NCBI RefSeq assembly: GCF_965641715.1
Contig: NZ_OZ282453.1
Reading direction: 5' to 3' (one strand)
Origin: Escherichia coli
GTDB taxonomy: Bacteria > Pseudomonadota > Gammaproteobacteria > Enterobacterales > Enterobacteriaceae
Length of the DNA: 64,000 bases
A program made the position numbers and the translations under genes. Below, piece after piece: positions 6,529-52,215 of this stretch. The notes below the pieces were generated by a model that ran no database searches, was not told the DNA's origin, and was given only the letters and a program-made list of their open reading frames with translations. Positions within the stretch are counted from its first letter, which is position 1. The number at the start of each line of letters is the position of its first letter.

Positions 6529-6657
6529 ATGACAATAGAAAAACACGAAAGAAGCACTAAGGATTTGGTGAAAGCAGCAGTATCGGGATGGCTGGGCACT
6601 GCGCTTGAATTTATGGATTTCAAGAGTCATACGTGTCAACTATTTGATAAATATTAA
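6529..6657 (+). pseudogene. ydfJ: 5' fragment of MFS transporter gene ydfJ, interrupted by prophage insertion
   Basis: MTIEKHERSTKDLVKAAVSGWLGTALEFMDF then diverges into phage DNA and stops at 6655..6657; reading frame resumes at 52207 (MDFQLYSLGAALVF...). Confidence 0.8.
6607..6621. repeat. attL core (gaatttatggatttc), direct repeat with attR
   Basis: 15-nt sequence at the ydfJ/phage junction repeated (one T fewer) at 52202..52215. Confidence 0.6.
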
Positions 6658-6658
6658 A

Positions 6659-7939
6659 TTAATTTTTCATTGCTTCGTTATGGGGCATGGTTGGGGCAAA
6701 CTCGCTTAACTGTGTATTTAACAAAGCTACCTGTGCATTATTGTTTTCAGACATCCATTTTCCGTATACCTGAAATACCATTTGCGCATCTGCATGGCCC
6801 ATCTGGTTTGCTATAAATGCCGGGTTAGCACCAGCTGTCAGCGACCAGCAGGCATAAGTATGTCTCGACTGATATGATTTTCGATGGCGGAGTCCGGCAC
6901 GTTTTATCGCTGCGTCCCACATCTGCCTTATTGAGTCAACGGTAAAATGGTCACCATAATTTTTTACTCTCGCTGACACTTCAGGTTGAAAAACAAAGGT
7001 GCATTTTTGTTTTTCTGTTCTGCCATACTCTCTCAGGTGAACATCAATGATATGCTCTTTGCTCAGTCTCGTTAATGTCATCTGACTCCGGAGAGCGTCG
7101 ATTGCTGGCTTAATAAGATGAATGACCCGATTGGTTCCCGCCTGTGTTTTTGGTACCGTGAAACGGTCTTTTGCTAAATTTCTCCTGATCATCATTGTTC
7201 CATTTTTCAGATCTATGTCCTCCCATCCAAGTGCACACAGCTCACCAGGGCGAATGCCAGTATAAACAGAAACACACCATAAATTTTTTGCTTGCTGATT
7301 TCTGCACGCATCGATAAGACGGATAAATTCCTCCCGCGAAAGAGGATCCGGAATGGTTCTTGATTCCTTTAATGGCGAGATCCCCTTAAACGGATTATCT
7401 GCCAGGTAACCGTTATCAACACCAAACTGGAACACGGCGTTAAGATTTGTCATGTAATTATTTACAGTTACAGCCGATCTCCCTGGTTGTGTAACAATAT
7501 AGTTACTTTTGGGGATCTGGTATCCAGTCAGTAGCTCTTTACGAACCTCCAGTAATTTTTCTTTATTAATCGATGAGGCAAGATTTTTTTCACCGATTAT
7601 GCTCAGGATATTTTTGATGACGGCACGGTATGTGTTGAGTGATGTTTTGGCGACTTCAGTTTCTTTCAGTGCCAGAAATTTTTCAGCCAGTTCTTTTATG
7701 GTTAAATCTTGTCGGGCCTCACCAAATTTTTCCAGATTGCGTGAGGAGGGAAACTGTTTTGCATAGTCGAAAACACCAGTTTTTATTGCGTAACAAACAG
7801 AGGCGCGTAGTTCACCTGCAACGCGCCTGTTTTTTGCTGTGTCAGGAACCCCCAGATTTTCCCTGACTCTTACGCCTTTATAAACAAACCAGATACGTAA
7901 TTTCCCTCCATGGTTTTCCACGCCTGTCGGATATTTCAT
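6659..7939 (-). CDS. int: Phage integrase (tyrosine recombinase)
   Basis: ORF 6659..7954; C-terminal RHTYACWSLTAGANPAFIANQMGHADAQMVFQVYGKWM catalytic region; start placed at second ATG (MKYPTG) which has a purine-rich RBS. Confidence 0.9.
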   Translation of the reverse strand: MKYPTGVENHGGKLRIWFVYKGVRVRENLGVPDTAKNRRVAGELRASVCYAIKTGVFDYAKQFPSSRNLEKFGEARQDLTIKELAEKFLALKETEVAKTSLNTYRAVIKNILSIIGEKNLASSINKEKLLEVRKELLTGYQIPKSNYIVTQPGRSAVTVNNYMTNLNAVFQFGVDNGYLADNPFKGISPLKESRTIPDPLSREEFIRLIDACRNQQAKNLWCVSVYTGIRPGELCALGWEDIDLKNGTMMIRRNLAKDRFTVPKTQAGTNRVIHLIKPAIDALRSQMTLTRLSKEHIIDVHLREYGRTEKQKCTFVFQPEVSARVKNYGDHFTVDSIRQMWDAAIKRAGLRHRKSYQSRHTYACWSLTAGANPAFIANQMGHADAQMVFQVYGKWMSENNNAQVALLNTQLSEFAPTMPHNEAMKN

Positions 7940-7973
7940 TTCAACTTCTCTCATTAGTTAGTGTGGCTTTTAG

Positions 7974-8225
7974 TCAAGTAAGATGACGTCTTGGTCTCGC
8001 TGATGCCTGGCGCTCAATCCAGCGATCAATTTCTTCCAGGTTGTAAAAGCATGGACTGTTATCCCATGGCATACCGTCATGAGCGACATGCTTATATTCC
8101 CTTCCTTCCATAAACGATTTTTCCCGGGCCTTTTTTAACGTACCTTTTTTTATTCCTTTCAGCGCAATTAACTGCTCTTCGGATACCCATTTGCCGGGAG
8201 AGACAATCATGATTACTTCGCTCAT
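7974..8225 (-). CDS. xis: Excisionase-like protein
   Basis: 83-aa ORF immediately upstream of int on same strand; position and size typical of lambdoid Xis. Confidence 0.65.
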   Translation of the reverse strand: MSEVIMIVSPGKWVSEEQLIALKGIKKGTLKKAREKSFMEGREYKHVAHDGMPWDNSPCFYNLEEIDRWIERQASARPRRHLT

Positions 8226-8297
8226 CGATTTCTTTATCTCTTACATCAGACGAGCGCCGGTTGCAGAATACCAGTCACAACCGGCGACAGTTGAACA

Positions 8298-10769
8298 TTA
8301 AGAATCAGCCTGACTCGGGATCAGTTTTTGCCAGATAACTGAAACGTATTTTGCCTGGTAACGGGCGTCATCAAGTGCATTATGGCGCTCACCTTCGAAT
8401 GGAATAGCCGTTCTGGCATCGAAATCTATGGCTTTCCCCAGCTCAACGATTGTGCGTACATCGCGATCGTTGTAGTAACGCCACGGGCAGGGGATCCCCT
8501 GCCGTTCGTATGAACGGCGCAAAATCGTGTTGTCGAAGTTGGCTCCATTTCCCCAAACCTGAACAAATAATTCACCGGAGTTTTCGTCGATAAATTCCCG
8601 CAATTGTAACAGTGCATCATCTAACGGGATTTCATCGGTCATAATGGCAGATTGTGCTTCGCGTGATTGCTTAAGCCACCATTTAATGGTGTCCCGATCA
8701 ATGACTCCGCCAGCAGTTTCCAGATCGATAGTCTTACTAAATTCCGGTCCTATATCTCCGGTTTGCGGATCGAAAAATATTGCACCTATTGAGATGATCG
8801 GTGCATCAGGATTTTTTCCCATGGTTTCAAGGTCGATCATTAGATGGTCACACGTCCTGCTGGTGGATGTGATTTCGTGATGACCGTTCACCTTAATTGA
8901 GTGATCTGCCGTCTCGCCAGTTTCATTATCGCTATTGTGATGCTGATTGCCGCCAGTGTTCTCCTTGTGTGGATGTTCAGCGCCTTCCATTTCCTCCGGA
9001 TCATCTTCCTGAACTTCAACCTGATACTCTTCATCGAATGTTTCTTGGTATGTTGCGTCGCCCATCACCGCGCCACAATCAGGGCAGTTGCCGCCGCCAG
9101 TCTGACCGCAGGCGGTGCAGACTTTTTCCACTTCCTGTTGCGCCACTGGTTCAGGCTGTTTCGTTTCTGGCTCGTTTTGTAACGCATTTGGGCTGTTTTG
9201 TTCCGCTTTTTGGTAGTTCCGTTCCGATTCATGCTGGTTCTGGTTCACAGAATCGCGGGTCTGGATCCCCTTAACCCATTTCGGATCATTCGGGTCACTA
9301 ATCCCTTCAACAAATTCACCATGTGATGCAGCAAGCAACTTATCGGCGTCAGGCTGGCTGATATTGGCTGCCTGCATAATTTTGTTTACTTCGTCAGCGG
9401 TAACTTTTATCGGCTCTGGTTGTTCTGAATCTTCAGCGGTATCTACATTTTGCGGTAAGCCCGTGTATGTGCCATTTTTTCGGGCAAAATATTCTTCTTT
9501 TGTGATTTCAGTGGCGCCAGCAGCCAGTGCCTTATCCAGACCAGAAAGTTTGTTTGCGCGACCGTATTTTTCTCCGTCCTTATCTGCGAAGAGGAAATAG
9601 AACGGCCCCTCACGCTCTACAGATGGTTCAGCTTCCGGCGCGGTTTCATTTTTTGGGATATCAGATACCTCAGTTTCCACTGCATCAGTTTGTGTTTCTG
9701 ATGACTGGAGAACATCAACAGTGCCCAGGTCTGTTTCTTCATTCTCAAACACGCCCTTTGTCGTCAGGTATTCGCAGATATATTTGTTCAGTGCTACGGG
9801 ATCTTTGTGAATGTCGATCGGACGCTCACGGACAAGGCCAAAAATAGTTTGGCGGTCGTAGCGAAGGGCATCAGGCTGTTTGCGCATTGATGCCGAGATA
9901 CGCTTCCAGTCTTCGCGGTCGTTGTCGATAACTTCTTTTTTTGCCCAGCGATGGATGCTGCCGTCAATGTTTCCGGCATCCACATCACCAGGCCAGAGAG
10001 CGTAGGCCAGTTCGTCATCCAGTGTTTTCCATGTCTGCTTGTATTCGCGATGAATGGCAGCAATGACCGGGCTGATTTTTCCTGTTGAATTTTCAGTGTA
10101 CTGTTGATTGGCTCTGGCGCGGGCGAGATCAACAACAGACGTGTATTTTCCGGTTTCCTTGCGTTCACCTTCGCGACGTTTTTTCCAGATGCGCATCTCT
10201 GCCTGAATTTCGGGCCATTTAGCACCAGGAATACATTTATGCTTAACCCACCCAATGGCGTGCAACTTAAGCTCCGGATACATGGCGTTAACTTCTGGCA
10301 TTTTCATCAACGCTTCAACGATATGTCCGTCGAATGTTGCCATGTCTTCCTGCAACAATTCCTGTGCGCTAATAACCATATCAACGGTGATGTTTTCACA
10401 TGTGTCGAACTTAACCATGACAGCGTTCTGTACTTCAGGGGCCAGCTTGTCAAAAGTGACGTTCATCGGATCGGATTCAGTCTCAACCGGGACAAAAGAA
10501 GCTGACTCCTCATCCCAGCGGTTTTCCTGCATATATTCAGCATCCCATGAATCGAGGGCAGGGCGGGGTATGCCAGGTTTATCCTCGCAGACAATAAATT
10601 TATAAGCGCAGTCCTGAGCAGCCGGATAATGTTCCAGGAACTGCCAGTGAAATTTTGCTCGAGCACGGCGTTCGTCGCCAGCTTCAATGGCTGTGGCTAC
10701 AGCCACAGCGCCTTCTTCCCTTGTTGCCAGTTCGTCAGGAATAGCGGCGCAAATAAAGACTTTACTCAT
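8298..10769 (-). CDS. RecE-like (exodeoxyribonuclease VIII-type) protein with C-terminal DnaQ-like DEDDh 3'-5' exonuclease domain
   Basis: 823 aa; central DKLLAASHGEFVEGISDPNDPKWVKGIQTRD resembles remembered RecE linker; C-terminus LMIDLETMG...HNALDDARYQAKY is a DEDDh exonuclease signature; acidic low-complexity region with CxxC...CxxC. Confidence 0.7.
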   Translation of the reverse strand: MSKVFICAAIPDELATREEGAVAVATAIEAGDERRARAKFHWQFLEHYPAAQDCAYKFIVCEDKPGIPRPALDSWDAEYMQENRWDEESASFVPVETESDPMNVTFDKLAPEVQNAVMVKFDTCENITVDMVISAQELLQEDMATFDGHIVEALMKMPEVNAMYPELKLHAIGWVKHKCIPGAKWPEIQAEMRIWKKRREGERKETGKYTSVVDLARARANQQYTENSTGKISPVIAAIHREYKQTWKTLDDELAYALWPGDVDAGNIDGSIHRWAKKEVIDNDREDWKRISASMRKQPDALRYDRQTIFGLVRERPIDIHKDPVALNKYICEYLTTKGVFENEETDLGTVDVLQSSETQTDAVETEVSDIPKNETAPEAEPSVEREGPFYFLFADKDGEKYGRANKLSGLDKALAAGATEITKEEYFARKNGTYTGLPQNVDTAEDSEQPEPIKVTADEVNKIMQAANISQPDADKLLAASHGEFVEGISDPNDPKWVKGIQTRDSVNQNQHESERNYQKAEQNSPNALQNEPETKQPEPVAQQEVEKVCTACGQTGGGNCPDCGAVMGDATYQETFDEEYQVEVQEDDPEEMEGAEHPHKENTGGNQHHNSDNETGETADHSIKVNGHHEITSTSRTCDHLMIDLETMGKNPDAPIISIGAIFFDPQTGDIGPEFSKTIDLETAGGVIDRDTIKWWLKQSREAQSAIMTDEIPLDDALLQLREFIDENSGELFVQVWGNGANFDNTILRRSYERQGIPCPWRYYNDRDVRTIVELGKAIDFDARTAIPFEGERHNALDDARYQAKYVSVIWQKLIPSQADS

Positions 10770-10862: not shown

Positions 10863-11054
10863 TTAAAGACCTGCCGGGATTTCGATATTATCCTGGTGAA
10901 TAACTTTATCGACCGGGTAACAGTTACCGGGAATTTTCTGTTCGGTTGCTGCAGTCATACACTCCTGCATTGTCCTGTGAACACTGTCTGCAATATCAAC
11001 TGGCTCTCCGGAAACAAGAAAAGCTGTCAGAACAAGCGCAAATGCTGAATTCAT
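10863..11054 (-). CDS. ydfD: YdfD-like small lysis-associated protein
   Basis: MNSAFALVLTAFLVSGEPVDIADSVHRTMQECMTAATEQKIPGNCYPVDKVIHQDNIEIPAGL; matches remembered Qin YdfD; start overlaps dicB stop. Confidence 0.7.
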   Translation of the reverse strand: MNSAFALVLTAFLVSGEPVDIADSVHRTMQECMTAATEQKIPGNCYPVDKVIHQDNIEIPAGL

Positions 11055-11239
11055 TGTGTACATCCTTTTGGCATCAGACGTAAACGAGCCAGCATTGAAA
11101 CAATGCATATTTTATTTAATAGCTCCCGTTCTTGTTTTCTCTTGTTAATGGCATCTTCAGTAAATACAGGGTTACTGATAGTGACACCAATTTCAAAACA
11201 ACCTTCAGACGTATTAACGTTTGGTAATAACGTTTTCAT
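11051..11239 (-). CDS. dicB: Cell division inhibitor DicB
   Basis: 62-aa MKTLLPNVNTSEGCFEIGVTISNPVFTEDAINKRKQERELLNKICIVSMLARLRLMPKGCTQ inside ORF 11051..11344; near-identical to remembered DicB. Confidence 0.85.
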   Translation of the reverse strand: MKTLLPNVNTSEGCFEIGVTISNPVFTEDAINKRKQERELLNKICIVSMLARLRLMPKGCTQ

Positions 11240-11414
11240 TATCGCGTCCTCAACAATGAATTTTGTGATGCAGTGCCTGGTGCCTCCAGGTGACGTTAAC
11301 CAGTTAACAATTAACGCCGGATACAGAGAATCCACCCATAACACTGTTTTTGGTTTTAACTGTTCCGCGTGCGCTTAGCCGCATTCACCGCATCACAAAA
11401 TTCACTTTAAAAAC

Positions 11415-11466
11415 GGCGGCAGAGCAGTCACGGAGTAAAACTGATACCGCCAAACGTCACCAGAAA
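11415..11466 (-). ncRNA. dicF: DicF small RNA (ftsZ-targeting sRNA)
   Basis: Minus-strand sequence tttctggtgacgtttggcggtatcagttttactccgtgactgctctgccgcc matches remembered DicF; lies directly upstream of dicB in the same operon orientation. Confidence 0.75.
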
Positions 11467-11741: not shown

Positions 11742-11942
11742 ATGACTAAAGAAGAATTTGTCTCTTATATTTTTGATAAAACGGTTGAAATGTATGCCGC
11801 TACTTACGGGTCCTGTAATCCTCTGAATAAACCAGAGGGGAAAGATGATTTCGACAAAATTTACCGCTTCTTGGAGGACCGCTATATCAAAAGGTTAGAG
11901 GACGCAGGGATCAAATCCCCAGTGAAGTCACCATTGTCCTGA
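11742..11942 (+). CDS. Hypothetical small protein (66 aa)
   Basis: ATG 11742 preceded by AGAAGGA; MTKEEFVSYIFDKTVEMYAATYGSC...; convergent with dicB operon; no recognised family. Confidence 0.35.
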   Translation: MTKEEFVSYIFDKTVEMYAATYGSCNPLNKPEGKDDFDKIYRFLEDRYIKRLEDAGIKSPVKSPLS

Positions 11943-12288
11943 GAACTTGCAGGACGTCATGATCGTAACTTCCATCCAAACCGCGACGGCAAATTGCTTC
12001 TCGTATTACCGGAAGCAGTTCGCTGGAAATCTCGGTGCATATTTCACCTGATAATACGCCTGGCTCAAGTGAGAATATTGGTGAACTTACGGTCTTGGTC
12101 TCGACAGTTTCAGAGTCAGTGCCAACATTATAAAGCTCAACGAAAGCGGTCTTGATTTTCCGGGCCAGATCTTTTGCTGGCTCGCTTGCAATATCTTTCC
12201 CGATTTCTCGCAGCACAGAATGCAATGTATGAGCTGCTGTTTTCTGTACATCAGACGGTAAATCTTTAAATTCCATCGTCAGCCTCAT
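11911..12288 (-). CDS. Hypothetical protein, YdfB/YdfC-position
   Basis: 125-aa ORF in the dicA-ydfA-...-dicF-dicB operon orientation; start ATG overlaps ydfA stop. Confidence 0.5.
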   Translation of the reverse strand: MRLTMEFKDLPSDVQKTAAHTLHSVLREIGKDIASEPAKDLARKIKTAFVELYNVGTDSETVETKTVSSPIFSLEPGVLSGEICTEISSELLPVIREAICRRGLDGSYDHDVLQVLRTMVTSLGI

Positions 12289-12440
12289 CAGTCAGTGTTT
12301 CTGGCTAACCAGCAACGCGCGCCAGATTCGGTTTTAAACGTTTTGCTTTTGGTATATGTCATCGCGGTGAACGTACCGTCCTGGTTGGGGAACACGCCAC
12401 ATACCAGAGATTCGCTGTTGCCAAGATCGATAGTATCCAT
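12288..12440 (-). CDS. ydfA: YdfA-like small protein
   Basis: MDTIDLGNSESLVCGVFPNQDGTFTAMTYTKSKTFKTESGARCWLARNTD within ORF 12288..12596; resembles remembered YdfA. Confidence 0.6.
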   Translation of the reverse strand: MDTIDLGNSESLVCGVFPNQDGTFTAMTYTKSKTFKTESGARCWLARNTD

Positions 12441-12632
12441 GCTGACCTCATTTCCCCTTAACGCCGGGGTAGCGGAACTGTTTGCTGAGAACACCGTGCG
12501 GTGTCTTGATGGAAGTAATTTAGTTTTCTCATTATTTTTCGTCAAGGTTTTTTTATGAGAAAACTCAAGTATTGGCGCAAGATAAAGCCAATACATTGAA
12601 ATGTAAGGCTTTAAAATTTTGTGAAGGGATGA

Positions 12633-13040: not shown

Positions 13041-13117
13041 ATTTAGATATCTTAATAACCCTTGACTTGAGATTCCTTGAGTGATTAGCATTGAGAAAAC
13101 TCAATATTGGAGGTGCG
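13041..13117. promoter_or_regulatory. Divergent promoter/operator region between dicA-like and dicC-like genes
   Basis: 77-bp intergenic region with TTGACT (13062..13067) and 16-bp palindrome attgagaaaactcaat (13090..13105) just upstream of the dicC-like RBS. Confidence 0.5.
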
Positions 13118-13345
13118 ATGTTTAAATCAGACGTAATTAATTTTTACGGTACGAAAGCCAAAGTAGCGAAAGCTGCTGGCGTTGACCCATCTGCTGTTTC
13201 TCAATGGCAAGAGCTGGTTCCTGAAGGTCGCGCGATGCGTCTACAGGAGGCATCTGGCGGCGAGCTTCTGTATGATCCCAAGGTTTATGACGAATATCGT
13301 AAGACGAAGCGGGCGGGGCGGTTGAACAATGAAAATCACTCCTGA
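13118..13345 (+). CDS. dicC: DicC/Cro-like small regulator
   Basis: MFKSDVINFYGTKAKVAKAAGVDPSAVSQWQ...LVPEGRAMRLQEASGGELLYDPKVYDEYRK; divergent from dicA; GGAGG RBS. Confidence 0.7.
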   Translation: MFKSDVINFYGTKAKVAKAAGVDPSAVSQWQELVPEGRAMRLQEASGGELLYDPKVYDEYRKTKRAGRLNNENHS

Positions 13346-13850
13346 ACAGGCTCGTGAGGCTCTGGATGCCTGGATATGTCGACCAGGAATGACACAGGAG
13401 CAGGCGACGATATTAATCACTGAAGCATTCTGGGCTTTGAAAGAGCGCCCGAACATCGATGTTCAGCGTGTCACAGATGAAGGTGGCGCGGTTGATCAGC
13501 GAGCGCTTGGCGTTAATCGAGTGAAGATATTCGAACGCTGGAAGGCTATCGACACTAGGGATAAGCGTGAAAAGTTCACGGCGCTAGTGCCTGCAATTAT
13601 GGAGGCTATCCGGATTAATGATTTCAGGTTGTATCGTGAAATTAGTGACGGAAAAAGCATCACGTACATGATCGCCGGGTTAAACAAAGAATATGGCGAT
13701 GTGGTGGAGTCCGGACTGCTTTTTGCTGATCCTGCCGTAGTGGATCGTGAAACTGACGAACTTATAGAAAAAGCAATTGCTTTCAAACTTGCGTATCGAC
13801 AGCAATACCAACAAAAAGCTGGATGGAATTATGAGCCTTCTTTTTGCTGA
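13329..13850 (+). CDS. Hypothetical early-region protein (possibly YdaT/CII-like)
   Basis: 173-aa ORF downstream of cro-like gene; family not recognised with confidence. Confidence 0.45.
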   Translation: MKITPEQAREALDAWICRPGMTQEQATILITEAFWALKERPNIDVQRVTDEGGAVDQRALGVNRVKIFERWKAIDTRDKREKFTALVPAIMEAIRINDFRLYREISDGKSITYMIAGLNKEYGDVVESGLLFADPAVVDRETDELIEKAIAFKLAYRQQYQQKAGWNYEPSFC

Positions 13851-14796
13851 ACGCCCACTGGTTATAAACACACAGCTTGCGATGAAGATTGGCTTAAATG
13901 AAGCCATTGTGTTGCAGCAGTTGCATTACTGGTTGAGAGATACCAATTCCGGCATGGAATGTGATGGTGTTCGCTGGATTTACAACACAACGGAACAATG
14001 GCTGGAACAGTTCCCATTCTGGTCAGAGTCAACGTTAAAGCGCGCGTTTGCAAGTCTGAAAACGCTGGGGCTTTTGCGTTGTGAAAAGCTCAATAAATCA
14101 AAGCGCGATATGACCAATTTCTACACGATCAACTACGGGAGCGAGCTTTTAGATGGTGGCAAATTGAGCGAATCCATCGGTTTAAAATGCGCCGCTCCAT
14201 CAGGTCAAAATGACACGATGGAAGAGGTCAAAATGAAACGCTCCATTGGTTCAAAACGACCCAATGTCATCGGGTCAAAATGGCCTGATGATCTTACAGA
14301 GAATACAACAGAGATTACTACAGAGAATAAAAACACTTTTCGTCCGGAAGCTTCGCAACCGGACCCGCAGACCGCTGAACAGGATTTTTTAACCCGGAAC
14401 CCCGACGCGGTTGTGTTTAGTGCGAAAAAACGCCAGTGGGGTAGCAGGGAGGATTTGGCGTGTGCGCAGTGGATTTGGGGGCGGATCGTGAACCTTTACG
14501 AACAGGCTGCCAGCGACGATGGAGAGATCATGCGACCAAAAGAGCCTAACTGGACAGCCTGGGCCAATGACGTGCGCACAATGCGGATGCTGGATGGCAG
14601 AAGCCACAGACAAATTTGCGAAATGTTTGGTCGGGTACAGCGAGATCAATTCTGGGTAAAAAACATCATGAGCCCGTCAAAACTCCGCGAAAAATGGGAC
14701 GAACTGGTCATCCGCCTGGGACGTTCACCTGTACAGCGTTGTATGAATCATATTTCTGAACCGGATACAGAAATTCCGCCTGGTTTCAGAGGATAA
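13831..14796 (+). CDS. Phage replication protein with DnaT-like C-terminal domain
   Basis: ORF 13777..14796; start at ATG 13831 (MSLLFAERP); C-terminus ...NHISEPDTEIPPGFRG resembles the DnaT C-terminus (...VSEPDSQIPPGFRG); gene contains iterons. Confidence 0.65.
   Translation: MSLLFAERPLVINTQLAMKIGLNEAIVLQQLHYWLRDTNSGMECDGVRWIYNTTEQWLEQFPFWSESTLKRAFASLKTLGLLRCEKLNKSKRDMTNFYTINYGSELLDGGKLSESIGLKCAAPSGQNDTMEEVKMKRSIGSKRPNVIGSKWPDDLTENTTEITTENKNTFRPEASQPDPQTAEQDFLTRNPDAVVFSAKKRQWGSREDLACAQWIWGRIVNLYEQAASDDGEIMRPKEPNWTAWANDVRTMRMLDGRSHRQICEMFGRVQRDQFWVKNIMSPSKLREKWDELVIRLGRSPVQRCMNHISEPDTEIPPGFRG
14180..14340. repeat. Putative replication origin: iterons plus AT-rich tract inside the replication gene
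   Basis: ggtcaaaatg at 14203, 14226, 14273 and degenerate copies (ggtttaaaatg 14180, ggttcaaaacg 14248) at ~22-23 bp spacing, followed by AT-rich 14285..14340. Confidence 0.55.
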
Positions 14797-14836
14797 GTTT
14801 TGATTTCAGGTCATGAGGTAATTTTAAGGGGGACTT

Positions 14837-15238
14837 GTGGCAAAAGTTTTTACACAAGAAGAGCGGGAAAAAATTAAAGGGCAGGTGGTGGAACTCGTGC
14901 GCCAGAGCGGTCGTGAGACGTTACGGCAACTGGAAGCTAAAACAGGTGCGACTAGATATCTGATGAGCGTTCTTGCCAGAGAGCTGGTAGCCAGTGGCGA
15001 TGTATACAACTCCGGCTACGGGTTATTCCCGTCTGAACAGGCGCGTAAGGACTGGCAAAACGCCCGCAAAAAACTATCGAGGGCAAAGGTGAAGAAAACA
15101 GCTGTGGTTGATCCGGACCTTATCTGGTCGTTACCTGATGGAGAAATACGTCGCTACGACAGTCGCCTAAACATAATCTGTCGCGAGTGCCGGATGAGTG
15201 AAGTTATGCAGCGCATACTGGCATTTTATCAGGGATAA
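14837..15238 (+). CDS. Hypothetical protein (133 aa), replication-module position
   Basis: ORF with no Walker motif; not a DnaC-type loader. Confidence 0.45.
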   Translation: MAKVFTQEEREKIKGQVVELVRQSGRETLRQLEAKTGATRYLMSVLARELVASGDVYNSGYGLFPSEQARKDWQNARKKLSRAKVKKTAVVDPDLIWSLPDGEIRRYDSRLNIICRECRMSEVMQRILAFYQG

Positions 15239-17554: not shown

Positions 17555-17765
17555 TTTCACATTGGCGAGGTAACGGTAGTTAAGTAGAATGGCTGCGGGT
17601 GCTTGAGGCTATCTGCCTCGGGCATGAACACCAACGGCAGATAGAGAAAAGCCCCAGTTAACATTACGCGTCCTGCAAGACGCTTAACATTAATCTGAGG
17701 CCAATTTCATGCTAGACACATGTAGGTTAGCCTCTTACGTGCCGAAAGGCAAGGAGAAGCAGGCT

Positions 17766-17921
17766 ATGAAGCAGCAAAAGGCGATGTTAATCGCCCTGAT
17801 CGTCATCTGTTTAACCGTCATAGTGACGGCACTGGTAACGAGGAAAGACCTCTGCGAGGTACGAATCCGAACCGGGCAGACGGAGGTCGCTGTCTTCACA
17901 GCTTACGAACCTGAGGAGTAA
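17766..17921 (+). CDS. hokD: Hok-family type I toxin (HokD/RelF-like)
   Basis: MKQQKAMLIALIVICLTVIVTALVTRKDLCEVRIRTGQTEVAVFTAYEPEE; AAGGAG RBS; ORF track shows in-frame upstream extension from 17709 (mok-like). Confidence 0.9.
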   Translation: MKQQKAMLIALIVICLTVIVTALVTRKDLCEVRIRTGQTEVAVFTAYEPEE

Positions 17922-17990
17922 GAGACCCGGCGAGGGAGAAATCCCTCGCCACCTCTGATGTGGCAGGCATCCTCAACGCACCCGCACTTA

Positions 17991-18016
17991 ACCCGCTTCG
18001 GCGGGTTTTTGTTTTT
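17991..18016 (+). terminator. Rho-independent terminator after hokD
   Basis: acccgc-ttcg-gcgggt hairpin followed by tttttgttttt. Confidence 0.7.
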
Positions 18017-18137
18017 ATTTTCAACGCGTTTGAAGTTCTGGACGGTGCCGGAATAGAATCAAAAATACTTAAGTAGCGCGCAGGGATAAGAGGGATGGTC
18101 CCTTAAAGGGGAGAGCTAATTATCCGGAAGGATTCTG

Positions 18138-18734: not shown

Positions 18735-18735
18735 C

Positions 18736-35595: not shown

Positions 35596-35606
35596 AGGAG
35601 GTGGCA

Positions 35607-36350: not shown

Positions 36351-36370
36351 CAGGACGATACTCATCATTT

Positions 36371-36394: not shown

Positions 36395-36407
36395 GCAGGT
36401 GGAGAAC

Positions 36408-36797: not shown

Positions 36798-36805
36798 CGC
36801 GGGAA

Positions 36806-40172: not shown

Positions 40173-40501
40173 TGGAGACGTTTCACTGGAAAGTGCGCCC
40201 GGATATGAATGTGGTATCAGAGCCGAAAGTGGTGACAGTGAAGCTGGGCGATGGTTATGAACAGCGTCGTGCGGCGGGACTGAATAACCAGTTGTCGATT
40301 TACAGCGTGACGATACGTGTTCGTAAATGTGAACACCCATCTTTAAAAGCCTTTCTGGAACGGCACGGTGGCGTCCGCGCATTTCAGTGGACGCCACCTT
40401 ATGACTGGAAGCCGATCAGGGTGGTTTGTCGTAAATGGTCGGCAAGCGTGGGGGCGTTGTGGGTAACCATAACGGCAGATTTTGAACAGGTCGTGGCATA
40501 G
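40172..40501 (+). CDS. Minor tail protein M
   Basis: 109 aa, lambda gpM size/position. Confidence 0.85.
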   Translation: METFHWKVRPDMNVVSEPKVVTVKLGDGYEQRRAAGLNNQLSIYSVTIRVRKCEHPSLKAFLERHGGVRAFQWTPPYDWKPIRVVCRKWSASVGALWVTITADFEQVVA

Positions 40502-40510
40502 GAGGCTCTG

Positions 40511-41209
40511 ATGCAGGATATTCCACAGGAAACACATCATGAGACGACACGCCTCACTCAGTCAGCCCAGGTGGTGCTCTGGGAAATCGATCTGACAGAG
40601 GTCGGTGGTGAACGTTATTTTTTCTGTAATGAGCAGAACGAAAAAGGTGAGCCGGTTACCTGGCAGGGGCGGCAGTATCAGGCATACCCCATTCAGGGGA
40701 CGGGATTTGAACTGAATGGCAAGGGCAGTGCTGCCCGTCCGACACTGACGGTTTCTAACCTGCACGGCATGGTCACCGGGATGGCGGAAGATCTGCAGAG
40801 TCTGGTCGGCGGAACGGTGGTCAGGCGTAAGGTTTACGCCCGTTTTCTGGTTGCGGTGAACTTCGTCAACGGAAACAGTGACGCCGATCCGGAGCAGGAG
40901 GTGATCAGCCGCTGGCGCATCGAGCAGTGCAGCGAACTGAGCGCGGTGAGTGCCTCTTTTGTACTGTCCACGCCGACGGAAACGGACGGTGCCGTTTTTC
41001 CGGGGCGCATCATGCTGGCCAACACCTGCACCTGGACCTATCGCGGTGACGAGTGCGGTTATCACGGTCCGGCGGTCGCGGATGAATATGATCAGCCGAC
41101 GTCCGATATCACGAAGGATAAATGCAGCAAATGCCTGAGCGGCTGTAAGTTTCGCAATAATGTCGGCAACTTTGGCGGCTTCCTTTCCATTAACAAACTT
41201 TCGCAGTGA
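40511..41209 (+). CDS. Minor tail protein L
   Basis: 232 aa with C-terminal Cys cluster (CTWTYRGDECGY...CSKCLSGCKF), lambda gpL-like. Confidence 0.85.
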   Translation: MQDIPQETHHETTRLTQSAQVVLWEIDLTEVGGERYFFCNEQNEKGEPVTWQGRQYQAYPIQGTGFELNGKGSAARPTLTVSNLHGMVTGMAEDLQSLVGGTVVRRKVYARFLVAVNFVNGNSDADPEQEVISRWRIEQCSELSAVSASFVLSTPTETDGAVFPGRIMLANTCTWTYRGDECGYHGPAVADEYDQPTSDITKDKCSKCLSGCKFRNNVGNFGGFLSINKLSQ

Positions 41210-41214
41210 ATCCC

Positions 41215-41958
41215 ATGACAGAGACAGAATCAGCGATTCTGGCGCACGCCCGGCGATGTGCGCCAGCGGAGTCGTGCGGCTTCGTGGTGAGAACACCGGA
41301 GGGGGAAAGATATTTTCCCTGCGTGAATATCTCTGGTGAGCCGGAGGCGTATTTCCGGATGTCGCCGGAGGACTGGCTGAGTGCAGAAATGCAGGGAGAG
41401 ATTGTGGCGCTGGTCCACAGCCACCCCGGTGGTCTGCCCTGGCTGAGTGAGGCCGACCGGCGGCTGCAGGTGCAGAGTGATTTGCCGTGGTGGCTGGTCT
41501 GCCGGGGGGCGATTCATAAATTCCGCTGTGTGCCGCATCTCACCGGGCGGCGCTTTGAGCACGGGGTGACGGACTGTTACACGCTGTTCCGGGACGCTTA
41601 CCATCTGGCGGGAATTGAGATGCCGGATTTTCATCGCGGGGATGACTGGTGGCGTCACGGCCAGAATCTCTATCTGGATAATCTGGAGGACACAGGGCTG
41701 TATCAGGTGCCGTTGTCAGCGGCGCAGCCGGGCGATGTGCTGCTGTGCTGTTTTGGTTCATCGGTGCCGAATCATGCCGCCATTTACTGTGGCGACGGCG
41801 AGCTGCTGCACCATATTCCTGAACAACTGAGTAAACGAGAGAGGTACACCGACAAATGGCAGCGACGCACACACTCCCTCTGGCGTCACCGGGCATGGCA
41901 CGCATCTGCCTTTACGGGGATTTGCAACGATTTGGTCGCCGTATCGACCTTCGTGTGA
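41215..41958 (+). CDS. Tail assembly protein K (NlpC/P60 + MPN domains)
   Basis: MTETESAILAHARRCAPAESCGFVV...HSHP (JAMM-like) and Cys/His peptidase motif. Confidence 0.85.
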   Translation: MTETESAILAHARRCAPAESCGFVVRTPEGERYFPCVNISGEPEAYFRMSPEDWLSAEMQGEIVALVHSHPGGLPWLSEADRRLQVQSDLPWWLVCRGAIHKFRCVPHLTGRRFEHGVTDCYTLFRDAYHLAGIEMPDFHRGDDWWRHGQNLYLDNLEDTGLYQVPLSAAQPGDVLLCCFGSSVPNHAAIYCGDGELLHHIPEQLSKRERYTDKWQRRTHSLWRHRAWHASAFTGICNDLVAVSTFV

Positions 41959-42503
41959 AAACGGGGGCTGAAGCCATCCGGGCACTGGCCACACAGCTCC
42001 CGGTGTTTCGTCAGAAACTGAATGAGGGCTGGTATCAGGTGCGCATTGCCGGGCGTGATGCAGGCGAAAATGAATTATCTGCCCGTCTTAATGAGCCGCT
42101 GGCAAATGGTGCCGTGATCCACATCGTGCCGCGTCTGGCGGGAGCTAAAAGTGGCGGTGTGTTTCAGGTGGTGCTTGGGGCGGCGCTGATTGCGGTGGCA
42201 TGGTGGAACCCTGTGGGCTGGCTGGGGGCCGCGGCTGTATCGGGCATGTATGCGGCAGGGGCCAGTATGATCCTGGGCGGAGTGGCGCAGATGCTGGCAC
42301 CGAAAGCCAGGACGCCCACGGCAGCCAGTACAGATAACGGCAAACAGAACACCTATTTCTCCTCACTGGATAACATGGTTGCCCAGGGCAATGTTCTGCC
42401 TGTTCTGTACGGTGAAATGCGCGTGGGGTCACGTGTGGTTTCTCAGGAGATCAGCACGGCAGACGAAGGGGATGGTGGTCAGGTTGTGGTGATTGGTCGC
42501 TGA
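41856..42503 (+). CDS. Tail assembly protein I
   Basis: MAATHTLPLASPGMARICLYGDLQRFGRRIDLRVK... lambda gpI-like; overlaps end of K, true start may be 41895. Confidence 0.8.
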   Translation: MAATHTLPLASPGMARICLYGDLQRFGRRIDLRVKTGAEAIRALATQLPVFRQKLNEGWYQVRIAGRDAGENELSARLNEPLANGAVIHIVPRLAGAKSGGVFQVVLGAALIAVAWWNPVGWLGAAAVSGMYAAGASMILGGVAQMLAPKARTPTAASTDNGKQNTYFSSLDNMVAQGNVLPVLYGEMRVGSRVVSQEISTADEGDGGQVVVIGR

Positions 42504-42560
42504 TGCAAAATGTTTTATGTGAAACCGCCTCCGGGCGGTTTTATCGTTTATGGAGCGTGA

Positions 42561-45971
<3,411 letters not shown>

Positions 45972-46028: not shown

Positions 46029-46628
46029 ATGCGTAAACTTTATGCCGCCATTTTGTCCGCAGCCATTTGTCTGGCCGTATCCGGTGCGCCTGCATGGGCG
46101 TCTGAACATCAGTCCACGCTGAGCGCGGGGTATCTTCATGCCCGGACGAACGTTCCCGGCAGTGATGATCTGAACGGGATTAACGTGAAATACCGTTATG
46201 AGTTTACGGACACACTGGGGCTGGTGACGTCATTCAGCTATGCAGGAGACAAGAATCGCCAGCTTACCCGTTACAGCGATACCCGCTGGCATGAAGATTC
46301 CGTGCGTAACCGCTGGTTCAGCGTGATGGTGGGGCCGTCTGTGCGCGTGAATGAATGGTTCAGCGCGTATGCGATGGCGGGTATGGCTTACAGCCGTGTG
46401 TCGACTTTCTCCGGGGATTATCTCCGCGTAACTGACAACAAGGGGAAAACGCACGACGTGCTGACCGGAAGTGATGACGGTCGCCACAGCAACACGTCTC
46501 TGGCGTGGGGAGCTGGCGTGCAGTTTAACCCGACCGAATCCGTGGCCATTGATATTGCTTATGAAGGCTCCGGCAGTGGCGACTGGCGCACTGACGGTTT
46601 CATCGTGGGTGTCGGTTATAAGTTCTGA
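46029..46628 (+). CDS. lom: Outer membrane protein Lom (Ail/OmpX family)
   Basis: Signal peptide and beta-barrel pattern ending GVGYKF. Confidence 0.88.
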
Positions 46629-46686: not shown

Positions 46687-49608
46687 GTGAATATGGCAGT
46701 AAAGATTTCAGGTGTACTGAAAGACGGCACAGGAAAACCGGTACAGAACTGCACAATCCAGCTGAAAGCAAAACGTAACAGCACCACGGTGGTGGTGAAC
46801 ACGCTGGCCTCAGAAAATCCGGATGAAGCCGGGCGTTACAGCATGGACGTTGAGTACGGGCAGTACAGCGTTATTCTGTTGGTGGAAGGATTCCCGCCGT
46901 CACATGCCGGGACCATCACCGTGTATGAAGATTCTCAACCCGGTACGCTGAATGATTTTCTCGGTGCCATGACGGAGGATGATGCCCGTCCGGAGGCACT
47001 GCGCCGTTTTGAACAGATGGTGGAAGAGGTGGCGCGTAACGCGTCCGTGGTGGCACAGAACACGGCAGCCGCGAAGAAGTCAGCCAGTGATGCCGGCACA
47101 TCTGCCCGTGAGGCGGCAACCCATGCGACTGATGCTGCAGATTCAGCACGTGCAGCCAGCACGTCAGCCGGACAGGCCGCTTCGTCGGCTCAGTCAGCGT
47201 CTTCCAGCGCAGGAACGGCATCAACAAAGGCCACTGAAGCGGAAAAAAGTGCTGCCGCTGCAGAGTCCTCAAAAAGCGCGGCAGCTACCAGTGCCGCTGC
47301 CGCGAAAACGTCAGAAACGAATGCTGCAGCGTCACAACAATCAGCCGCCACTTCTGCATCCACCGCGACTACGAAAGCGTCAGAAGCTGCCACCTCAGCC
47401 CGGGATGCGTCGGCTTCAAAAGAGGCGGCAAAATCATCAGAAACGAACGCATCCTCGAGCGCCAGTAGTGCAGCTTCCTCGGCAACGGCGGCAGCAAATT
47501 CCGCGAAGGCGGCAAAAACGTCCGAGACGAACGCCAGGTCTTCTGAGACGGCAGCGGGACAGAGCGCCTCAGCTGCGGCAGGCTCAAAAACAGCGGCTGC
47601 GTCGTCTGCCAGTGCCGCGTCAACAAGTGCCGGGCAGGCCTCAGCCAGTGCCACCGCTGCCGGAAAATCGGCAGAAAGCGCCGCATCGTCCGCTTCAACA
47701 GCCACAACGAAGGCTGGCGAAGCCACTGAACAGGCCAGCGCAGCAGCGAGGTCTGCTTCCGCAGCGAAGACATCCGAGACGAACGCGAAAGCGTCGGAAA
47801 CCAGCGCAGAATCCTCAAAAACGGCTGCCGCATCGTCCGCCAGTTCGGCGGCGTCATCGGCATCATCTGCGTCTGCTTCAAAAGATGAGGCGAGCAGACA
47901 GGCGTCAGCAGCAAAGGGCAGCGCCACGACGGCATCCACGAAGGCGACAGAGGCAGCTGGCAGTGCGACGGCGGCAGCTCAGAGCAAAAGTACGGCGGAA
48001 TCCGCGGCAACGCGCGCCGAGACAGCGGCAAAACGGGCAGAGGATATTGCATCCGCCGTGGCGCTTGAGGATGCGAGCACGACGAAAAAGGGGATAGTAC
48101 AGCTCAGCAGTGCGACTAACAGCACTTCCGAGTCACTGGCGGCAACGCCAAAAGCCGTTAAGGCCGCGTATGAGCTGGCTAACGGGAAATACACCGCACA
48201 GGATGCAACGACAGCACAGAAAGGGATAGTTCAGCTCAGCAGCGCGACCAACAGCACATCTGAAATGCTGGCGGCAACGCCAAAGTCGGTAAAGGCAGCC
48301 TATGACCTTGCTAACGGGAAATATACTGCTCAGGACGCTACGACAGCACAAAAAGGAATTGTCCAGCTCAGTAGTGCAACCAACAGCGCATCTGAAACGC
48401 TTGCCGCGACACCGAAAGCAGTGAAAGCAGCTAATGATAATGCGAATGGTCGGGTACCTTCTGCCCGTAAGGTGAATGGTAAGGCGCTTTCAGCGGATAT
48501 AACACTGACGCCGAAAGATATTGGTACGCTTAACTCAACAACAATGTCATTCAGCGGTGGTGCTGGTTGGTTCAAATTAGCAACGGTAACCATGCCACAG
48601 GCGAGTTCTGTTGTTTCAATTACGTTGATTGGTGGCGCGGGATTTAACGTGGGGTCACCTCAACAGGCAGGTATATCTGAACTTGTTTTGCGTGCAGGTA
48701 ATGGTAATCCGAAGGGGATTACTGGTGCTTTATGGCAGCGCACATCGACAGGGTTTACAAATTTTGCCTGGGTCAATACATCTGGTGATACTTACGATAT
48801 TTACGTTGCAATCGGAAATTATGCGACTGGTGTAAATATTCAATGGGATTATACCAGTAATGCCAGCGTGACTATTCATACGTCACCAGCATATTCTGCT
48901 AATAAGCCGGAAGGGTTAACGGACGGTACAGTTTATTCACTCTATACGCCATCAGAGCAGTTTTATCCGCCTGGCGCACCAATCCCGTGGCCATCAGATA
49001 CCGTTCCGTCTGGTTATGCCCTGATGCAGGGGCAGACTTTTGACAAATCTGCTTACCCGAAACTTGCAACCGCTTATCCGTCAGGCGTGATCCCTGATAT
49101 GCGTGGCTGGACGATTAAGGGCAAACCTGCCAGTGGTCGGGCCGTATTGTCTCAGGAACAGGACGGCATTAAATCGCACACCCACAGCGCCAGCGCATCC
49201 AGTACGGATTTGGGGACGAAAACCACATCGTCGTTTGATTACGGCACTAAATCCACGAATAACACCGGGGCGCATACGCACAGTGTGAGCGGTACAGCCG
49301 CAAGTGCCGGAAACCATACTCATAGTGTCACAGGCGCATCAGCAGTCAGCCAGTGGTCACAAAATGGGTCAGTACATAAGGTAGTGTCTGCGGCCAGTGT
49401 GAATACAAGTGCTGCAGGAGCGCACACTCATAGTGTCAGCGGCACAGCTGCATCTGCAGGTGCTCACGCACATACTGTCGGTATTGGTGCTCATACGCAC
49501 TCTGTTGCGATTGGCTCACATGGACACACCATCACCGTTAACGCTGCTGGTAACGCGGAAAACACTGTCAAAAACATCGCATTTAACTACATTGTGAGGC
49601 TTGCATAA
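46687..49608 (+). CDS. stf: Side tail fibre protein (Stf) with expanded internal repeats
   Basis: [27 protein letters not shown]... lambda Stf-like N-terminus, long Ala/Ser-rich tract, three near-identical ~40-aa repeats, HTHS repeats, C-terminus [24 protein letters not shown]. Confidence 0.9.
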
Positions 49609-50183
49609 TGGCATTCAGAATGAGTGAACAACCACGGACCATAAAAATTTATAATCTGCTGGCAGGAACTAATGAATTTATTGGTGAAGGTGACGCATAT
49701 ATTCCGCCTCATACAGGTCTGCCAGCAAACAGTTCCTATATTGCACCGCCAGATATTCCGGCTGGCTTCGTGGCTGTTTTCAACAGTGATGAGGCATCGT
49801 GGCATCTCGTTGAAGATCATCGGGGTAAAACCGTCTATGACGTGGCTTCCGGCGACGCGTTATTTATTTCTGAACTTGGCCCATTACCGGAAAATATCAC
49901 CTGGTTATCCCCGGAAGGGGAGTTTCAGAAGTGGAACGGCACAGCCTGGGTGAAGGATACGGAAGCAGCAAAACTGTTCCGGATCCGGGAGGCGGAAGAA
50001 ACAAAAAACAACCTGATGCAGGTAGCCAGTGAGCATATTGCGCCGCTTCAGGATGCTGCAGATCTGGAAATTGCAACGGAGGAAGAAATCTCGTTGCTGG
50101 AAGCATGGAAAAAGTATCGGGTATTGCTGAACCGTGTTGATACGTCAACTGCACAGGATATTGAATGGCCAGCACTGCCGTAG
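49608..50183 (+). CDS. tfa: Tail fibre assembly protein (Tfa)
   Basis: 191 aa, ATGA overlap with stf; Tfa-like sequence. Confidence 0.85.
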
Positions 50184-50280
50184 GGTAAAACATATAAATT
50201 CTATAATTAGATGTATCTTTCCATTTACGGCAAGGAAGGGGGCTTGGAAGACGTAAAGCATCTCACACCGAGATTATTTT

Positions 50281-50871
50281 TTATATGTCAGGTGTCTGAA
50301 GTTTTGCTTTGGCTCTTAAAATGGTTTGCCGCGAGGTTTTGAATTCCCGGGCAATGGCACTTATACTTACACCTGACTTAATTCGTTCGAATACCACCTG
50401 TTTCTGTTCTTCATTTAACACAGGTGGTCGACCAAAACGTTTCCCTGCGCCGCGGGCTCTTACTATCCCGGAATGAGTGCGTTCAAGTAAAAGGTCTCGT
50501 TCAAATTCAGCGACTGCTGAAATTACTTGCATCATCATTTTTCCTGTTGGACTGGTCAGGTCAATGCCCCCCAATGCTAAGCAATGCACTCTGATACCTG
50601 TTTCGGTCAGTTGTTCCACTGTTTTCCTGATATCCATTGCATTACAACCAAGGCGATCCAGTTTTGTCACAATCAATTGATCACCACATTTCAGGCGAGC
50701 AAGCAACCGGTTAAAACCAGGACGCTCACTGGTTGCTGCTGAGCCGCTAATGTGTTCTTCGATTATTTGCTGAGGTTTGATTTTAAAACCTGCACTTTCG
50801 ATTTCCCGGCGTTGATTTTCGGTGGTCTGATCCAGCGTTGATATCCGACAGTAAGCAAAAATTCGAGACAT
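50281..50871 (-). CDS. pin: Serine recombinase / DNA invertase Pin
   Basis: [20 protein letters not shown]... resolvase catalytic Ser motif and C-terminal HTH; adjacent to tail fibre genes. Confidence 0.9.
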
Positions 50872-51187
50872 AGTGAGATTCTATACGAAATTGGTGTTCA
50901 TATCATAATGCATCTCAGAAAATAATTTTGATTATTTTTGTACATATTTGTATGTACACGTTCGAAAATAAACGAATGCGTATGCAACCCCGTAATTTTG
51001 GTGAGACCCAAAATCGATTTTGTGAAAAATGGCTTTAACTCGGTTTGTTTTTCGAGTTCCGGGCGGACTCAAGGAAGAAGAATAGTGTTGCGTGTTATTT
51101 TAACCAGATTTCAAGTTGTTTGGTCGTGGAAAAGTGGAGCAAAATGTTGTTAAAGTGGAAAAATGATAAAAAAGTAAGTTTATTATA

Positions 51188-51421
51188 TTACATTTTACCA
51201 TTTAAATTTTGGTTGTCTTTAAGAACTGATATCGCTGTTTGTAATAATTCTTTGTTATCCAGCCATGATTTTTTCTTTATGTTTCCTTCAATGTAATCAA
51301 GCAATGTTCTGGTATTGATAGGTCTTCCCTGTTTTGCTACTTCCACTACAGCATCCCCTAGGATAATTCTTACTTCAGGAAGCTGCGCAGGGAACCACTT
51401 TAGGGTGTCTTTTGATTTCAT
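51188..51421 (-). CDS. ydfK: YdfK/YnaE-like protein
   Basis: MKSKDTLKWFPAQLPEVRIILGDAVVEVAKQGRPINTRTLLDYIEGNIKKKSWLDNKELLQTAISVLK...; resembles remembered YdfK. Confidence 0.7.
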   Translation of the reverse strand: MKSKDTLKWFPAQLPEVRIILGDAVVEVAKQGRPINTRTLLDYIEGNIKKKSWLDNKELLQTAISVLKDNQNLNGKM

Positions 51422-52201
51422 GAAGATATTCCTTAAAATATTATTGATTTTCATTGCGATATTGTATGTCTGATTCAGGATATGTTGGCTTATACATCGG
51501 TTTTGTCTGGGTTATTGGATATGCCAATCCCTAATTTTATTAGGGCATGACTAAAAATGCTGAATATGATAAGGAGAGAAGTGATTATCAGTATGCTGTT
51601 CATATAGCCTCGAATTAGTAATGTGTTATATATGATATAGTTGACAATTTTTATCTTGGGTGTTCTTAAAGTTCGTAGATAAACATTGTCGTTTCAGGTA
51701 TACAGGAATGCTAACAGGTGGCAGCAAAAATCAGGCGGTTTATGGCGCAAGCTGAAGCGGCAACTGCAAACTATCTTATGCAGAGACTCTACACGGATTG
51801 GGTTTAAAAGTATACATAGATAACAGTTTTTATCTGAAGAAGAAAAATATCAAGGTGATATAGCCTATATGCCTTTGATGCGGAGGAATGAATGTGATGG
51901 GAGTGATGTATCTGAATAGTTGAAAAACCGCAGACACGCCTTATGCAAGAACGTGCTGCGGTTGGCTGGTAAATTTTTCGATAGTGTGAGTATTGAATGA
52001 TTTCCAGCCGTTCTTGATTTTACGCATAAATCCATGAAAAAACTACTTATCTGTTGGGGAGTTTTTTTGGGGCATATATGGGACAGAAATAGGCCCCAGA
52101 TAGACACTGAGATCGAACTTAGGATGCTTTTTAAAAAATGCAACTATCTGAAAAAACCTAGAAAACGCCAAGGAAACCACAGGATGGGAAAAAACACCTG
52201 T

Positions 52202-52215
52202 GAATTATGGATTTC
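52202..52215. repeat. attR core (gaattatggatttc)
   Basis: Direct repeat of attL core at the right phage/ydfJ junction. Confidence 0.6.

Follow-up and report, generated by a model that had tools for sequence, protein, structure and literature searches.

We analysed a 64,000-nucleotide stretch of an Escherichia coli genome (contig NZ_OZ282453.1; hereafter the window) in which the host gene ydfJ is interrupted by phage DNA. The results suggested, with a probability that we put at roughly 80%, that the interval 6607-52215 holds one lambdoid temperate prophage, complete in structure, located between rspB and ydfJ and 45,594 bp long. Attachment (att) repeats were found at both ends, int and xis beside the att site, a repressor/cro pair with operator-like sites, replication, Q and lysis genes, and a set of structural genes. 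The chief value of the result is a correct annotation, that of one complete and probably mobile phage and not of a remnant like Qin, the prophage at this site in strain K-12.

Attachment sites and boundaries

The att repeats at the two junctions share an 11-bp perfect core, TTATGGATTTC, and over their whole length (15 vs 14 nt) differ by one indel, the sequence common to both junctions being GAATT(T)ATGGATTTC. The core lies inside ydfJ codons 28-31; ydfJ is split after codon 31, and its remainder resumes at 52216. No further copy of the 15-mer was found anywhere else in the window, including the prophage interior. A four-way comparison covering 45 nt on each side was exact: attL corresponded to B-O-P', attR to P-O-B', the attP of phage mEp460_ev081 (hereafter ev081) to P-O-P', and the attB of O111:H2 12A to B-O-B'. 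Excision is predicted to give the attP junction …CACCTGTGAA-TTATGGATTTC-AAGAGTCATACG… and to restore the attB junction …GCGCTTGAAT-TTATGGATTTC-CAGTTATATTCG…. An earlier note on this DNA had proposed a prophage bounded by a short direct repeat within split ydfJ, and these comparisons showed its coordinates to be correct to the base.

We then deleted the element in silico and searched for the resulting rspB-ydfJ junction in 5426 complete E. coli genomes. An uninterrupted match was present in 2010 of them, at 99.4-99.5% identity, and the ydfJ site was occupied or disrupted in ~62%. The window as a whole aligned end to end with the chromosome of the O91:H21 strain FWSEC0008 at 99.4% identity, where the RefSeq order is ynfE-ynfD-ynfC-speG-ynfB-ynfA-rspA-rspB, ~45 kb of phage genes, a 5'-truncated ydfJ, and ydfI…eamA.

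The insertion also alters the reading frames at its edges. At attL, the 31-codon N-terminal YdfJ fragment is fused to 11 phage codons and corresponds to ynfP in K-12. At attR, the att core supplies an in-frame ATG (ATG GAT TTC = M-D-F, the same as YdfJ residues 29-31), and the K-12 annotation uses the truncated form as ydfJ.

Integrity of the prophage genome

The coding sequences (CDS) annotated in ev081, other than its short unnamed open reading frames (ORFs), were translated and mapped on the window. The results showed that all 53 had full-length, stop-free counterparts, the majority at 99-100% amino acid identity; the exceptions were Exo (88.8%), J (90%) and gpG (92%). Xis, the repressor, Cro, YdaT, the O-like initiator, RusA, lysozyme and Rz were 100% identical to those of ev081, and Q was 99.3% identical. 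All 21 genes from terS to tfa were single intact ORFs with one terminal stop each, 90-100% identical to ev081 and/or phage mEp460. The alignment with ev081 was colinear, with no insertion sequence or other insertion in the prophage. Domain searches gave assignments for every expected module, and the modules follow the lambdoid order: int-xis-exo, dicB operon, repressor/cro, O-like replication, ydfU-rusA-Q, tRNAs, lysis cassette, terminase, portal, protease-capsid, tail, J, lom, stf-tfa and pin.

The earlier note had described all modules as intact and in canonical order and the element as complete and possibly active, and had pointed to frameshifts or truncations on careful alignment as the evidence to look for. 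None was found, so that its description holds throughout the domain assignments and the 53 mapped CDS. With no decay found and a near-identical, plaque-forming relative in ev081, we infer that this copy excises and makes infectious particles.

Several apparent defects were considered and rejected. The only indels in the prophage relative to FWSEC0008 are an intergenic T-run, in which the window agrees with ev081, and a compensated pair in J; neither shifts the frame. The portal ORF is longer than that of FWSEC0008, but the 502-amino-acid form is the one present in ev081 and mEp460, and it is FWSEC0008 that has a shorter variant. The Prokaryotic Genome Annotation Pipeline (PGAP) flags pseudogenes in a near-identical genome (a tolA fragment, a helix-turn-helix (HTH) fragment and short ORFs), and these were rejected as signs of decay because they are located in accessory DNA.

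Relation to isolated phages

The whole prophage was searched against 50,697 phage records. It matched one genome as a whole, that of ev081 (LR597641.1, 45,865 bp), which is colinear once rotated at the packaging site; 97.7% of the 45,594 bp aligned, at 98.2% identity. The species rule of the International Committee on Taxonomy of Viruses is 95% genome similarity. Identity multiplied by aligned fraction (0.982 x 0.977 = 0.959) just passes this value, and by this measure the prophage belongs, close to the threshold, to the same species-level group as ev081. The two share gene order, attP core and arms, Int, Xis, the immunity region, replication genes, PD-T7-1, hokD, rem, Q, the TolA-like genes, lysis and structural genes, pin and ydfK. 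They differ, apart from Exo, in the C-terminus of J (window 45520-45924) and in the repeat-rich middle of Stf (971 vs 1023 amino acids), which are the unaligned or diverged stretches and which are both host-range determinants.

Phage ev081 came from the faecal virome of an infant, was isolated as plaques and has been classified as temperate (Mathieu et al. 2020, PMC6969025). It was recovered as a viral operational taxonomic unit, at 99.6% identity, in metagenomic and virome data of the same cohort, and a later J. Bacteriol. paper describes it as 'a functional temperate phage' with dicB, dicF, dicAC and rem. A literature search on phage HannyBb in the urinary coliphage paper gave nothing useful. 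Elements of this kind have been described before: a phage genome 98% identical to the prophage is published, as is the connection of that phage with dicBF/Rem, and the site is known. What novelty is left concerns the induction signal and the TolA-like cargo.

Phages mEp460 (NC_019716) and cdtI resemble the prophage in the packaging region and in the terS-to-lom module (94-100% protein identity, J 90%), and mEp460 covers 48% of the prophage, namely the packaging, head and tail half. The early half of mEp460, in contrast, is wholly distinct, with another integrase and site, an S24-type repressor, and other replication and lysis genes. The earlier note had named Stx/21-like phages for comparison; in the prophage only the holin is of P21 type, and the structural module is mEp460/cdtI/Gifsy-2-like.

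The PPydfJ prophages of enterohaemorrhagic E. coli, as described by Nakamura et al. (2021, PMC8112680), are also lambda-like and integrated in ydfJ with a short att sequence. They differ in that they carry loci of type III secretion effectors (nleC, nleG) and are often clustered, whereas in our prophage we saw neither effector genes nor secondary attB sites. An attP amplicon has been obtained from the ydfJ prophage of O26:H11 (PMC8112680), and integrases using the ydfJ site therefore do excise.

Divergence from FWSEC0008 was uneven along the window. In the chromosome on either side there are 12-16 differing sites per kb, whereas most of the prophage has 0.2-0.8 per kb. Because this is far below the flanks, the prophage appears to be much younger than the divergence of its two hosts, suggesting recent mobility. 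Two patches within the prophage, 27001-32500 (terminase/portal) and 43001-45000 (J), differ at ~15 per kb, which indicates mosaic exchange within a backbone that the two copies came to share recently. The left half of the prophage recurred nearly whole in 98 complete genomes, whose sources were humans, pigs, chicken and seawater.

Comparison with Qin of K-12

The K-12 element at ydfJ is annotated as 'cryptic prophage Qin' (NC_000913.3 1632277-1652745, 20,469 bp); intQ and ydfE are pseudogenes there, and IS2E is inserted. It uses the same integration core, and alignments pass through both junctions at 98.6-99.1%. Qin covers 26% of the prophage, and at 90-99% nucleotide identity the two share int (to window position 7818), dicB/ydfD/DicF, ydfA, part of dicC/ydfX, hokD-rem-ydfU, the lysis cassette through gnsB, and the Stf C-terminus-tfaQ-pinQ-ydfK segment. 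Rem, DicB, HokD, Pin and lysozyme are 96-100% identical. Qin has, however, no counterpart of window 7818-10003 (with xis and the greater part of exo) or of the whole structural block at 26.7-49 kb, and its replication module is not intact. IS2 interrupts its int, and it carries relBE, flxA, cspB/F and nohA instead. The earlier note's statement that the K-12 prophage is cryptic agrees with the Qin annotation, and the alignment shows Qin, with its loss of structural, replication and recombination genes, to be the decayed one of the two relatives.

The regulatory proteins are more distant, with identities to Qin of 54% for DicA, 70% for DicC and 40% for Q. Because DicA is only 54% identical, the prophage and Qin are likely to be heteroimmune, and their antitermination specificity probably differs. 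The prophage thus shares the core and junctions of the Qin lineage, whereas its DicA and Q are not those of Qin and its state is not cryptic by gene content. It illustrates K-12 Qin before decay.

Immunity and a probable route of induction

The immunity region (dicBp with its operators, the repressor, the PR operators and the start of cro) has 695 of 696 nt the same as ev081. A domain search of the 135-amino-acid repressor gave HTH families only, without an S24 (LexA-like) cleavage domain. For this reason no self-cleavage like that of lambda CI is expected, and the region is unlike an SOS-inducible switch of lambda/P22 type. The LexA box CTG(T/A)-N8-(T/A)CAG had four matches in the prophage, none of them near rem or the early promoters; the only perfect CTGT-N8-ACAG match, at 26375 upstream of gnsB, was considered as a point of SOS control and rejected as chance expectation.

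Rem is an experimentally defined DicA antirepressor in K-12, and in the prophage a terminator (17990-18007) is followed by a promoter-like site (18030-18059) that belongs to rem itself. Gifsy-type immunity (Lemire et al., as cited in PMC10448788) likewise combines a short HTH-only repressor that has no autocleavage domain with a small antirepressor gene elsewhere on the prophage. The Gifsy antirepressors are LexA-controlled, however, whereas no LexA box precedes rem here, so that an SOS-controlled antirepressor switch of the Gifsy type was not found. In K-12, dicBp is tightly repressed; urea or heat induced it, and mitomycin C does not derepress it. Because of the HTH-only repressor, the lack of a LexA box near rem or the early promoters, and this K-12 result, a mitomycin C or ultraviolet (UV) assay could fail even for a viable phage. 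By analogy with K-12, mitomycin C or UV may not induce the prophage, and induction through Rem appears more likely. Standard SOS induction may miss this class of phage.

The explanation that best fits these results would be as follows. A tyrosine integrase would have inserted the phage at the 11-bp core in ydfJ, the same site as Qin. Lysogeny would be held by the short DicA-type HTH repressor binding TTGAGAAAACTCAA-like operators at dicBp, which is PL-like, and at the PR-like promoter, and derepression would most likely come through the small antirepressor Rem, not through RecA-stimulated self-cleavage. Rightward transcription would then yield the DicC-type Cro, the CII-like YdaT and the O-like replication initiator. 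Antitermination by Q would open the late operon, with its P21-type holin, lysozyme, Rz/Rz1, GpA-type terminase, lambda-type portal, ClpP-protease/capsid fusion and lambda-like tail with J and side fibres. Int and Xis would excise the genome at attL and attR, restoring ydfJ.

Alternative explanations

Several points weigh against a complete and active phage. Excision and infectious virion production have been shown only for the 98%-identical ev081, from which this copy differs by missense changes in 3 Int residues, ~11% of Exo, 10% of J and 8% of gpG. The window also has a single-nucleotide polymorphism of its own at 12554 (T vs G in ev081 and FWSEC0008), upstream of the dicBp -35 and just outside the core of the adjoining OL operator-like site ATGAGAAAACTCAA (12555-12568). 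No helicase loader gene of P/DnaC/DnaB type was identified in 13831-15238, an arrangement that is the same in ev081. The cos site is only presumed, the ev081 and mEp460 records starting at a terS ATG and not at a mapped end, and control by Rem is extrapolated, since the repressor is only 54% identical to K-12 DicA. The missense changes and the change beside the operator would suit a grounded prophage, one whose ORFs are intact but in which excision, replication or assembly is prevented by a copy-specific missense or regulatory change or by a host factor, the element then behaving as cryptic. We consider this unlikely: all essential genes are full length, the variant alleles are full-length ORFs in other genomes and phages too, and the key proteins from Xis to Rz listed above are identical to those of the functional ev081, with Q nearly so. 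That the prophage diverges so little from its FWSEC0008 copy, against the much higher values of the flanks, also argues for recent transfer and not for long residence and decay.

A domesticated platform for cargo (PD-T7-1, DicB/DicF, HokD, Lom, cold-shock and TolA-like genes), its lytic functions effectively silent as in Qin of K-12, is very improbable. The many host-interacting accessory genes, the frequent occupation or disruption of ydfJ, and the tight repression of K-12 dicBp, with no mitomycin C induction, would all agree with it, but Qin-like relatives have lost the 22-kb structural block, xis and int, whereas nothing is lost here, and a 98%-identical genome circulates as virions. Clusters of prophages at ydfJ are documented in O157:H7, and the patches at 27-32.5 kb and 43-45 kb have a separate history, as they would if two prophages were joined in tandem or if the assembly were chimeric. 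There is, however, one integrase and one attL/attR pair, with no internal att copy; the length is that of a single phage, end-to-end colinear with one phage genome, and the same structure recurs in 98 complete genomes. With no second set of int and att, this explanation is effectively refuted. A structurally complete prophage is the reading that we retain.

A bolder version of this reading is possible, though we hold it to be doubtful: a live, unabridged Qin-type phage whose switch is thrown by Rem on a non-SOS signal, and whose two TolA-domain-III lipoproteins act as decoys against TolA-dependent invaders (colicins, filamentous phages). If it were true, the DicA/DicB/DicF/Rem circuitry of K-12, long unexplained, would become testable in its native phage context, and the TolA-like decoys would be a kind of phage-encoded exclusion on which no literature was found.

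Cargo genes

If the region is a complete and probably mobile phage, its cargo (PD-T7-1, DicB/DicF, HokD, Lom, the cold-shock paralogues and the TolA-like lipoproteins) is for that reason to be regarded as horizontally transferable. PD-T7-1 is an E. coli anti-phage gene discovered by experiment. Its counterpart here, shared with ev081, sits between the replication genes and hokD and has a predicted defence role; its protein had no Pfam or NCBIfam match and is otherwise a 'hypothetical protein'. The O-like initiator upstream showed DnaD-like and replisome-organiser similarity in PHROGs and had no Pfam match.

The two TolA-like genes are adjacent and lie upstream of the holin. Both proteins have a lipoprotein signal (lipoboxes IIGC and VAGC) and a C-terminus like TolA domain III. 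The first showed ~65% identity to E. coli TolA-III (PDB 1s62; E=5e-28), and the second matched TolA-III at E=5e-9. The PGAP label of the first as a tolA pseudogene fragment was rejected, since it is a complete 142-amino-acid lipoprotein ORF shared with ev081. Among the 50,697 phage records, the TolA-like genes occurred in ev081 only; the whole block was present in ~357 of the 5426 E. coli genomes, and homologues of the second protein (87%) are carried by plasmids including pO157. A literature search on TolA-like prophage proteins found nothing useful. A possible role of the two lipoproteins is that of decoys, in the periplasm, for TolA ligands (colicins, Ff g3p).

The features of the prophage are collected in Table 1.

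Table 1. Features annotated in the prophage and at its junctions (window positions; aa, amino acids; sRNA, small RNA)
Feature	Position	Strand	Remarks
ydfJ 5' fragment (host gene)	6529-6621	+	left of prophage; 31 codons; intact ydfJ begins at the equivalent position in unoccupied NZ_CP077479
attL	6607-6621		GAATTTATGGATTTC; perfect core at 6611-6621
Tyrosine integrase, 426 aa	6659-7939	-	arm-binding and catalytic domains; 99.3% identical to ev081 Int
Excisionase	7974-8225	-	DUF1233; 100% identical to ev081
Exonuclease, 823 aa	8298-10769	-	RecE-like region and Rv2179c-like 3'-5' exonuclease domain; 88.8% identical to ev081
dicB operon, distal part	10863-11465	-	ydfD, dicB, DicF
ydfD lysis protein	10863-11054	-
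dicB	11051-11239	-
DicF sRNA	11414-11465	-
Small early-left ORFs	11742-12440		66-aa (+), 121-aa (-), DUF1391/YdfA-like (-)
dicBp, PL-like promoter	12517-12568	-	-35 at 12540-12545, -10 at 12517-12522; two operator-like sites, 12519-12532 and 12555-12568
DicA-type repressor, 135 aa	12633-13040	-	HTH_3 only; 100% identical to ev081, 54% to K-12 DicA
PR-like promoter	13062-13104	+	perfect operator-like site TTGAGAAAACTCAA at 13091-13104
Cro, DicC/P22-Cro type, 75 aa	13118-13345	+
YdaT/CII-like	13329-13850	+	100% identical to ev081
O-like replication initiator, 321 aa	13831-14796	+	100% identical to ev081
Ren-like, DUF977	14837-15238	+	100% identical to ev081
PD-T7-1 anti-phage defence gene (predicted), 449 aa	15673-17022	-	moron position; full-length PADLOC match, E=4e-157, residues 8-447 on model 2-448/452
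hok/sok-type toxin module	17597-17921	+	sok RNA family match 17597-17771, hokD 17766-17921
rem, 83 aa	18138-18389	+	96% identical to K-12 Rem (DicA antirepressor)
nin-like region	18456-20990	+	92-aa ORF, ydfU (DUF968/HNH), rusA, Q
Q antiterminator	20169-20990	+
Two phage tRNA genes	21134-21386	+	CAT anticodon (Met, or Ile2 per PGAP), Arg-TCT
Late-operon moron block	21886-23358	+	DUF3927, STnc100 match, two TolA-domain-III lipoproteins
DUF3927	21886-22017	+
STnc100 sRNA family match	22083-22273	+	Rfam gathering level; between DUF3927 and first TolA-like gene
TolA-like lipoprotein 1, 142 aa	22384-22812	+
TolA-like lipoprotein 2	22963-23358	+
Lysis cassette	23610-25165	+	P21-type holin, ydfR, lysozyme, Rz, Rz1
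Rz	24668-25165	+
Rz1 lipoprotein gene	24861-25115	+	embedded in Rz; intact
Accessory genes	25371-27091	+	cspI with cspA-type 5' thermoregulator, ymcF, ynfN, gnsB, 68-aa ORF
Packaging region, presumed cos	27400-27643	+	upstream of terS; conserved with ev081 and mEp460; single-copy arrangement as in mEp460
Packaging/head module	27644-34607	+	terS (DUF1441), terL (GpA ATPase and nuclease), gpW-like adaptor, lambda-type portal (502 aa), ClpP-protease/major-capsid fusion, DUF2190, head closure
Tail module	34619-45971	+	neck, U, V, G and T, tape measure, M, L, K, I, J (1135 aa, full-length lambda_TipJ)
lom	46029-46628	+
stf side tail fibre, 971 aa	46693-49608	+
tfa	49608-50183	+
IS009 match	49951-50149	+	Rfam gathering level; inside tfaQ
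pinQ serine invertase	50281-50871	-	99% identical to K-12 PinQ
ydfK	51188-51421	-
ynfT	51490-51603	-
attR	52202-52215		GAATTATGGATTTC; perfect core at 52205-52215
Truncated ydfJ ORF, 427 aa	52205/52207-53490	+	N-terminally shortened; start within attR, downstream of phage DNA

Invertase and minor observations

The invertase gene pinQ lies beside the fibre genes, as in a Din-family invertible tail-fibre switch. A search around stf-tfa-pin gave no Gin/Pin/Hin-type crossover sites (AAACC-NN-GGTTT core) and no convincing inverted repeats, and near pinQ there were no alternative fibre C-termini or further tfa cassette, only the single tfa. A working invertible fibre segment was rejected on these grounds. 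The gene looks like an orphan invertase, and ev081 and Qin are arranged alike.

The start of the ev081 record was considered as a cos end and rejected, since the mEp460 annotation indicates that the records begin at the ATG upstream of terS. Upstream of terS, ev081 has a 98-bp tandem duplication (LR597641.1 45629-45824 vs window 27480-27577) that is absent from the window and from mEp460; it may be genuine or may have arisen when the ends of the phage record were assembled. IS009 and STnc100 are poorly characterised sRNA families, and both appear to accompany the phage.

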